DNA from: Escherichia phage vB_EcoM_DalCa
Sequence record: NC_054908.1
Reading direction: 5' to 3' (one strand)
Length of the DNA stretch: 64,000 nt
The position numbers were made by a program, and so were the translations under genes. Shown in pieces: positions 24,914 through 26,419 of this stretch. A model generated the notes under the pieces. It was not told the origin of the DNA and searched no databases. It worked only from the letters and a program-made list of their open reading frames with translations. Numbering within the stretch: position 1 is the stretch's first letter; every line of letters begins with the position of its first letter.

Positions 24914-26419
24914 ATGATTGAATTAAAAGATTTACCTTTTGTTGATAGCGTTCCTGACGAAGGTCAGGAACGTATTTCATGGATTAAAAATGGTGAAGAA
25001 ATACTAGGAGCTAGCACTAAGTATGGAAACGATGGATCAATGAATAGACCAATTGTTTCCGTGTTTAAAAACGTCGAGGTTCTTGATGAAAATGTGGGAA
25101 TTCTTAAAACTGCCATTGAAACATCGCAGAAAGATATTAAAACAATTCAAGGAGTTTTAGATGTATCAGGAGATATAGAAGCACTATCGCAGATCAGTGT
25201 TAATAAAAATGACATATCAAATTTAAAGACACTTACTAATGAACACACTGATATATTAACTGGAACTAATAATACAGTTGACAAAATTATTGCTGATATA
25301 GGTCCATTTAATGATGAAGAAAACTCTGTTTATAGAACAATTAGAAATGATTTATTGTGGATTAAACAAGAACTAGGGCAATATTCTGGCCAAGACATTA
25401 ACGGTCTTCCTGTTGTTGGTAATGCTAGCACAGGAATGAAACATAGAATAATAACAAATAGTACATTATTATCTTCACAAGGCATTCGTTTAAGTGAATT
25501 AGAAAATAAATTTACTGAATCTGACGTAGGATCATTGACGGTTGAAGTTGGTAAATTACGCGATGAACTTGGTAATAAACCAGTAGATTTTGGACCAAAT
25601 ATTTATAATAGATTAAACACTATAGATGATAAACAAACTTTAATAAATTCTGATATAGCAGAAATTAAATCTTCTATTGGATACCCAGAAAATGTTTCTA
25701 TAATAACAGAAATTAATAATAACATTGGATACCCAGAAAATGTTTCTATAATAACAGAAATTAATAATAACAAAAGTAGCATTGAAGCTATTAATAATGA
25801 ATTAAATCAGAGTGAAGGTGTTAAACAACGCTTAACATCTATTGAAACTTCTATTGGTTCAGATGATATTCCTTCTAGTATTAAAGGAAAAATTAAAAAT
25901 CACACAACTTCTATTGAGTCTTTAAACGGAATTGTTGGTGAAAACACTTCGTCTGGATTAAGAGCGAATGTTTCGTGGTTAAATCAAATTGTTGGAACTG
26001 ACTCTAGCGGAGGACAGCCATCTCCTTCTGGGTCTCTATTAAATAAAGTTTCAGTGATTGAAGGAGAAGTTTCAGTTTTAAACAATAATGTTCAAAATAT
26101 ACAGGTCGAAATAGGAAATAATAAAACAGGAATTAAAGGCCAAGTTATTGAACTCACTTCACTTATAAATGGAAATAATCCTGACGGATCAACTGTTGAA
26201 GAACGAGGATTAACTAATTCTATAAAAACGAATGAAACTAATATTGCGGCAGTCACGCAGGAAGTAAATACAGCTAAAGACGATATATCCTCTTTACAGA
26301 GCAGCGTTCAATCTCTACAAGAAGCGGGTTATATTCCTGAAGCTCCAAGAGATGGGCAAGCATACGTTCGTAAAGACGGCGAATGGGTATTGCTTTCTAC
26401 CTTTTTATCACCAGCATAA
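24914..26419 (+). CDS. wac: fibritin (whisker/neck protein)
   Basis: 501 aa; C-terminal foldon [27 protein letters not shown]; coiled-coil repeats. Confidence 0.95.
25676..25771 (+). repeat. perfect 48-bp direct tandem duplication (2 copies) within wac
   Basis: 25676-25723 and 25724-25771 are identical; encodes [16 protein letters not shown] twice. Confidence 0.9.

Follow-up and report, generated by a model that had tools for sequence, protein, structure and literature searches.

A perfect 48-bp tandem duplication within the fibritin gene (wac) of Escherichia phage vB_EcoM_DalCa

The fibritin gene (wac) of Escherichia phage vB_EcoM_DalCa was found to carry two identical, adjacent copies of a 48-bp unit. 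We consider it likely, and hold this with good confidence, that this is a real and heritable in-frame duplication which originated through misalignment, which gave the fibre shaft an extra mini-helix together with an extra loop, and whose effect on fibre function is small or neutral. The gain and loss of blocks is already a recognised mode of fibritin evolution, and the DalCa allele, with its change at a mid-shaft loop, exemplifies it on a small scale and at a recent date. The duplication is thus a rare but ordinary length variant. No description of it was found in the literature searched, and the sequence itself is publicly deposited.

The duplicated unit

The stretch of DNA analysed in this study (the window) comprises 64,000 nucleotides and all positions given here refer to it. 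Reading the window directly, copy 1 of the unit occupies positions 25676-25723 on the plus strand (residues 255-270 of the protein) and copy 2 follows it head to tail at positions 25724-25771 on the same strand (residues 271-286). Both copies have the sequence ATTGGATACCCAGAAAATGTTTCTATAATAACAGAAATTAATAATAAC and there are zero mismatches between them. Copy 1 falls at the position where the aligned single-copy alleles show a gap. The two copies meet at a novel joint, AATAAC/ATTGGA, at 25723/25724. Exact identity at a period of 48 covers positions 25676-25772, and as this extends one base past the end of copy 2, the junction has a microhomology of 1 nt. With Tandem Repeats Finder, the array covers 25655-25772 and amounts to 2.5 copies, the additional half copy being due to a weaker partial copy upstream of 25676. 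With the base composition of the window, approximately 3e-23 perfect 48-bp tandem pairs would be expected by chance in 64 kb.

The repeat is in frame and leaves the wac open reading frame (ORF) intact, so that the 16-residue unit is encoded twice. The original prediction of a perfect 48-bp tandem duplication within wac, adding a second copy of a 16-residue unit to the coiled-coil shaft, was therefore borne out in both its position and its sequence.

The wac repeat is the sole high-identity tandem array in the 64-kb window. One other array was found, in gp5, at positions 12797-12928 inside a plus-strand ORF (11330-13057). This array is imperfect with a period of 24/48 bp and encodes VEGNGTIL VKGNVTIV VEGNADIT VKGDATTL VEGNQTNT. 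These octapeptides follow the VxGxxxxx pattern already known from gp5, the tail lysozyme/needle, whose C-terminal triple beta-helix contains them.

The host gene and its neighbours

The gene containing the duplication is located at positions 24914-26419 on the plus strand and encodes a T4-type fibritin (neck whisker/collar fibre) of 501 aa, which is identical in sequence to YP_010067577.1 of Escherichia phage vB_EcoM_DalCa. The assignment was made from the ORF and its structure-chain, Pfam and PHROG matches. The protein aligns end to end (residues 2-501) with the T4 fibritin chains 2bsg_A and 3j2o_A with an E-value of approximately 5.6e-234, and the fibritin crystal fragments 1aa0 and 1avy are also matched (E-values of 2.9e-54 and 1.8e-32, respectively). 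Residues 387-496 match the Pfam family PF07921 (Fibritin_C) with an E-value of 3.2e-33 and a score of 114 bits against a cut-off of 21. The match to PHROG 1056, ‘fibritin neck whisker’ (E-value 3e-198), occurs in two stretches, the best of which stops at residue 270, exactly at the end of copy 1.

Both ends of the protein are well preserved. The N-terminal attachment domain (about 50-80 aa) is present, as residues 2-79 match the mini-fibritin structures 1ox3/2ibl (E-value of approximately 5e-47), and many invariant columns were observed at residues 4-60 in the fibritin family alignment. The C-terminal foldon, consisting of 27 residues, is identical in sequence to that of T4.

The flanking genes are those expected around wac. 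The upstream neighbour, located at 23354-24904 on the plus strand, is a homologue of gene 12 (short tail fibre; PHROG 910, E-value 5e-207) and the downstream neighbour, located at 26451-27380 on the plus strand, is a homologue of gene 13 (neck protein; PHROG 211, E-value 3e-43). In both RB3 and Ptacy1496, the annotation at the position upstream of wac is that of a short or straight tail fibre, the downstream gene is annotated as neck protein 13 in RB3, and the order gene 12, wac, gene 13 is also annotated in RB3, G2540-3 and Ptacy1496. In T4, fibritin binds domain III of gp13 (PMC12929629).

The identification of the gene as fibritin (wac) in the original prediction is thus upheld by the alignment to the T4 chains, by PF07921, by PHROG 1056 and by the gene 12 and gene 13 flanks. 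By every criterion that can be applied to a sequence, the DalCa gene belongs to the T4 fibritin family, and DalCa is a Tequatrovirus of the RB3-like group. The protein is 96-99% identical to fibritins of the RB3 type and approximately 80% identical to the T4 type, and on the basis of this identity it is expected to form a parallel homotrimer that is present on the virion as collar and whiskers. The N-terminal attachment region, the series of helices and loops, the foldon and the gene position are all shared with T4 fibritin (gpwac, 487 aa) and with the RB3-type protein (485 aa). Unlike these types, however, the DalCa fibritin has an additional 16-residue module that brings it to 501 aa, a trait which it has in common only with the fibritin of Ptacy1496.

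Carriers of the duplication and single-copy relatives

The phage collection that we searched appears to be without the DalCa genome itself, and the DalCa fibritin is present in the protein collection. The best match to wac in the phage collection was 98.7% identical and the best 24-kb match was 98.6% identical. In a megablast search with wac, all of the best 60 of 500 phage records span 1458 bp, corresponding to one copy of the unit, save two: the wac of G9062 spans 1446 bp and that of Ptacy1496 spans 1506 bp. A 48-mer centred on the joint, which does not seed on single-copy genomes, matched only Ptacy1496 in the phage collection, at 100%. A protein-level search with both copies gave the same picture, as one of the 323 records (Ptacy1496) spans both copies and the other 322 align with a 16-residue gap. 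Comparison with the wac genes of related phages had been put forward as a check in the original prediction, and it places the relatives as one-copy (322 of 323) and Ptacy1496 as two-copy. Neither three-copy alleles nor parallel duplications in other fibritin types were found among the 323 phage records. A copy-number-variable contingency locus was considered and rejected, the alleles being one- or two-copy only and the carriers very rare.

Ptacy1496 was isolated separately and comes from the Czech Republic. Its wac differs from that of DalCa at 31 positions, with the duplication common to both. Over the surrounding 7.5 kb there are 196 differences (2.6%) between the two phages, none of which fall within positions 25097-25786 (plus strand). 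This 690-bp tract, which includes both copies of the unit, is identical in the two phages and its flanks are diverged. Among the single-copy phages, which include G2540-3, RB3 and G9062 with one copy each, the closest allele is that of G2540-3 (MK327944.1) with 11 substitutions and the 48-bp gap relative to DalCa wac. The single unit of G2540-3 is identical to the duplicated unit.

The occurrence of the joint in Ptacy1496 bears directly on whether the duplication could be an assembly or sequencing artefact, in which one real copy would have been doubled by the assembler. The perfect identity of the copies is what such an artefact would give, and the joint was not found in IMG/VR contigs, GTDB genomes or JGI metagenomes by exact 34-mer scans, nor in complete E. 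coli genomes by 48-mer megablast. However, the same joint is present in a phage that differs from DalCa at nearly two hundred nearby positions, the repeat is in frame with an intact ORF, and a repeat of this size is shorter than a typical short read, so that reads spanning it would be expected. An artefact is, on these grounds, very unlikely and we give it almost no weight.

The sharing of the 690-bp identical tract amid 2.6% divergence fits a single origin followed by recombination. On this allele background the duplication most likely took place only once, after which recombination would have carried the allele into two mosaic genomes. Perfect identity of the copies had been taken earlier as a sign that the duplication is recent or maintained, but a complete absence of mismatches over only 48 bp carries no information on age. 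What the two genomes do indicate is that the allele has evidently persisted long enough to occupy backgrounds that differ by 2.6% nearby.

Patchy divergence between DalCa and Ptacy1496 was observed over positions 22799-29410, where blocks with as many as approximately 19 differences per 250 bp are interspersed with stretches of full identity. Such a recombination mosaic is typical of T-even phages. The differences in the 3' part of the Ptacy1496 wac agree with RB3 at some sites and with G2540-3 at others. A further difference in this neighbourhood occurs in G2540-3 (MK327944.1), in which the homologues of genes 13 and 14 are separated by an extra 813-bp ORF (5416-6228) for a hypothetical protein. 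DalCa, RB3 and Ptacy1496 lack this ORF at that position, and it may be a mobile gene, for example a homing endonuclease.

Origin of the duplication

A pre-existing quasi-repeat, TTCTGATATAGCAGAAATTAA, was found at positions 25648-25668 on the plus strand. It matches positions 25696-25716 (TTCTATAATAACAGAAATTAA), which lie exactly 48 bp further on, at 17 of 21 nucleotides, and positions 25744-25764 to the same extent. The two quasi-repeats encode S-D-I-A-E-I-K and S-I-I-T-E-I-N and share an exact core of 10 nt, CAGAAATTAA. When the reconstructed single-copy gene was scanned at all offsets of 24-120 for 21-nt windows with at least 17 matches, exactly one pair was recovered, at the site of the duplication, compared with the 0.11 pairs expected from codon shuffles. 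The region 25560-25880 was also examined for inverted repeats and hairpins as possible promoters of slippage, and none were found.

As the sole pre-existing quasi-repeat agrees with the duplication in both period and location, out-of-register pairing is suggested as its origin. This coincidence is hard to ascribe to chance and points to misalignment. In the proposed mechanism, the quasi-repeats spaced 48 bp apart would misalign in a single-copy gene during replication slippage or unequal recombination, and the intervening 48 bp would thereby be duplicated. The allele would then have spread or persisted through homologous recombination, which would place it in the two mosaic genomes that now carry it.

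A simple crossover inside the quasi-repeat was rejected as the full account of the origin. The joint falls outside the region of homology, 7 nt to the 3' side of the matched block, at a point where the aligned sequences differ (TAATAAC vs ATCTTCT). A crossover within the homology predicts a hybrid middle repeat that encodes ...EIKSS, whereas the actual sequence is ...EINNN. The molecular path could have involved mismatch-tolerant extension, heteroduplex correction or later conversion.

The same quasi-repeat could also have acted as a recurrent hotspot, with DalCa and Ptacy1496 having acquired their duplications independently through slippage. A quasi-repeat with this spacing would favour exactly this period, and the background tract in its single-copy form is widespread among RB3-like phages. 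Against this, the position of the joint outside the matched block, with a microhomology of 1 nt, makes an identical breakpoint unlikely to occur twice, and the 322 other records with the same quasi-repeat region are without the duplication. The identical tract shared by the carriers also fits one origin followed by recombination. Independent duplication is improbable in our estimation.

Shaft structure and predicted effect of the insertion

Fibritin is a trimeric fibre of 530 A in which the shaft is a parallel three-stranded coiled coil, with segments separated by short loops (PMC3004832; PMC3797505). No solved atomic-resolution structure covers this part of the shaft; the deposited full-length chains are model-based and the recent maps resolve the N-terminal regions only. 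The location of the unit relative to the segments was taken from a heptad scan and from AlphaFold2 models of the one-copy and two-copy proteins.

The original prediction placed the unit probably in a loop between coiled-coil segments, with a shifted register and a longer whisker as the alternative, and named coiled-coil register prediction as a means of checking it. In the heptad scan (a/d positions), the register is continuous from approximately N229 to I255, breaks at GYPENVS and starts again from I279. Copy 1 has a weak a-d-a pattern, I-TE-I-NNN-I, which mirrors the native I-AE-I-KSS-I. The AlphaFold2 monomer of the one-copy allele has a helix at residues 230-255, a loop at 256-262 (GYPENVS) and a helix at 263-282. 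The monomer of the DalCa allele has a helix at 229-254, a loop at 255-261, a short helix at 262-269, a second loop at 270-278 and a helix at 279-298. Overall, 14 helical segments with short loops between them were observed in the DalCa allele compared with 13 in the one-copy allele. The predicted loops mostly follow a hydrophobic residue and a glycine, as in DIG, ELG, SIG, IVG and EIG. As these models are monomers of a trimeric fibre, with pTM values of 0.27-0.28, their tertiary arrangement is meaningless. The pLDDT is below 50 at residues 252-277, so that the helix-loop-helix arrangement is a weak prediction.

The models and the scan agree, with moderate confidence, on a long and segmented helical coiled-coil shaft with short glycine-containing loops. 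They suggest that the 16-residue unit consists of the core isoleucine that ends one segment together with its glycine cap, the loop, and 8 residues from the start of the segment that follows; the inter-segment loop GYPENVS is 7 residues long. The placement in a loop between segments was therefore essentially right, with the unit spanning GYPENVS in both the scan and the monomers. For the two-copy protein, the low-confidence AlphaFold2 models and the heptad scan both suggest an arrangement of helix, loop, mini-helix, loop and helix.

In this arrangement, the new joint ...EINNN-IG would imitate the native segment end ...EIKSS-IG and the protein would gain one mini-helix of 8-9 residues and one loop. 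Since the register restarts at each loop, it could be maintained downstream even with an insertion that is not made up of whole heptads, and the downstream heptads and the foldon would be unaffected. The whisker would be lengthened by approximately 1.5-2.5 nm out of approximately 53 nm, which amounts to a few percent.

Length conservation and functional weight

Fibritin length is tightly kept. In 117 of the 120 best fibritin clusters, which extend down to approximately 52% identity, the proteins are single-foldon, full-length fibritins of 477-487 aa. The other three comprise long forms of 516 and 565 aa and one protein of 459 aa that ends inside the foldon. Sequence conservation within the unit is also high. 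In fibritin alignments down to 49% identity, Y273 of the second IGYP copy (25727-25738) is invariant, and conservation is 90% or higher at I271, G272, P274, S278, I279 and T281. On the evidence of these alignments, the IGYP region is the most conserved motif of the mid-shaft. Since the length is so tightly kept and the unit holds this motif, the 16-residue insertion may not be neutral.

Because T-even phages recombine so actively, one would expect a perfect tandem repeat of 48 bp to be quickly lost through collapse. The presence of the repeat in two diverged genomes despite this expectation, together with the length constraint and the conservation of the unit, could be read as adaptive, in that a doubled IGYP loop (a possible hinge or contact) or a longer whisker would alter how the long tail fibres are held and released. 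However, the carriers amount to two of approximately 324 genomes, which gives no sign of a sweep, and neither a third copy nor a parallel duplication is seen in other fibritin types. In addition, T4 can form plaques without fibritin (PMC3004832), so that selection in culture is weak. We therefore regard an adaptive role as unlikely. The more specific possibility that the IGYP loop is a hinge or contact for the capture and release of long tail fibres, with DalCa and Ptacy1496 being natural two-hinge, longer-whisker variants, is given a slight chance by us. If it is true, a comparison of one-copy and two-copy phages would explain the length constraint of 477-487 residues.

Fibritin promotes the attachment of tail fibres and is not absolutely essential (PMC3004832; PMC3797505). 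The effect of the insertion on the role of the whisker, namely aiding the attachment and retraction of the long tail fibres, is most likely small or neutral. The allele is probably a near-neutral variant, as fibritin is not essential, only two carriers are found, and other small indels in the shaft occur naturally.

The allele provides a clean and datable case of a segmented coiled-coil fibre gaining a loop and a helix start through the misalignment of a short quasi-repeat, and it departs, as few others do, from the otherwise strict length conservation of T-even fibritins. It is also a naturally occurring construct, ready for use in testing whether tail-fibre deployment depends on whisker length or on the IGYP loop. 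For the engineering of fibritin and foldon constructs, it marks a site in the shaft at which a viable phage evidently accommodates 16 additional residues. The relevance outside the field of phage-fibre specialists is small.

Other length variants of fibritin

Larger changes in length have occurred elsewhere in the family. According to PMC3797505, a gene segment was duplicated or deleted when the JS98-type fibritins arose from the T4 type. The DalCa fibritin resembles the JS98 type and the long forms (516 and 565 aa) in that its length has changed through the gain or loss of a coiled-coil block. The changes in the JS98 type and the long forms involve approximately 30-80 aa near the C-terminal end before the foldon and are old and diverged, whereas the change in DalCa involves 16 aa in the mid-shaft and is still a perfect repeat at the DNA level.

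Smaller changes were observed in close relatives. The fibritin of G9062, a near-identical allele, has an in-frame shaft indel in which 4 aa are missing (TNNT, residues 118-121). The EC128-type fibritin (483 aa) lacks 2 aa (NT), with VN--SQ aligned to VNTNTRE at DalCa residues 284-287, and this deletion adjoins the right edge of the duplicated unit. Both of these variants are deletions of 2-4 residues, in contrast to DalCa where a whole module of loop and helix start is duplicated. From these alleles, small in-frame indels appear to be tolerated at a few positions of the shaft.
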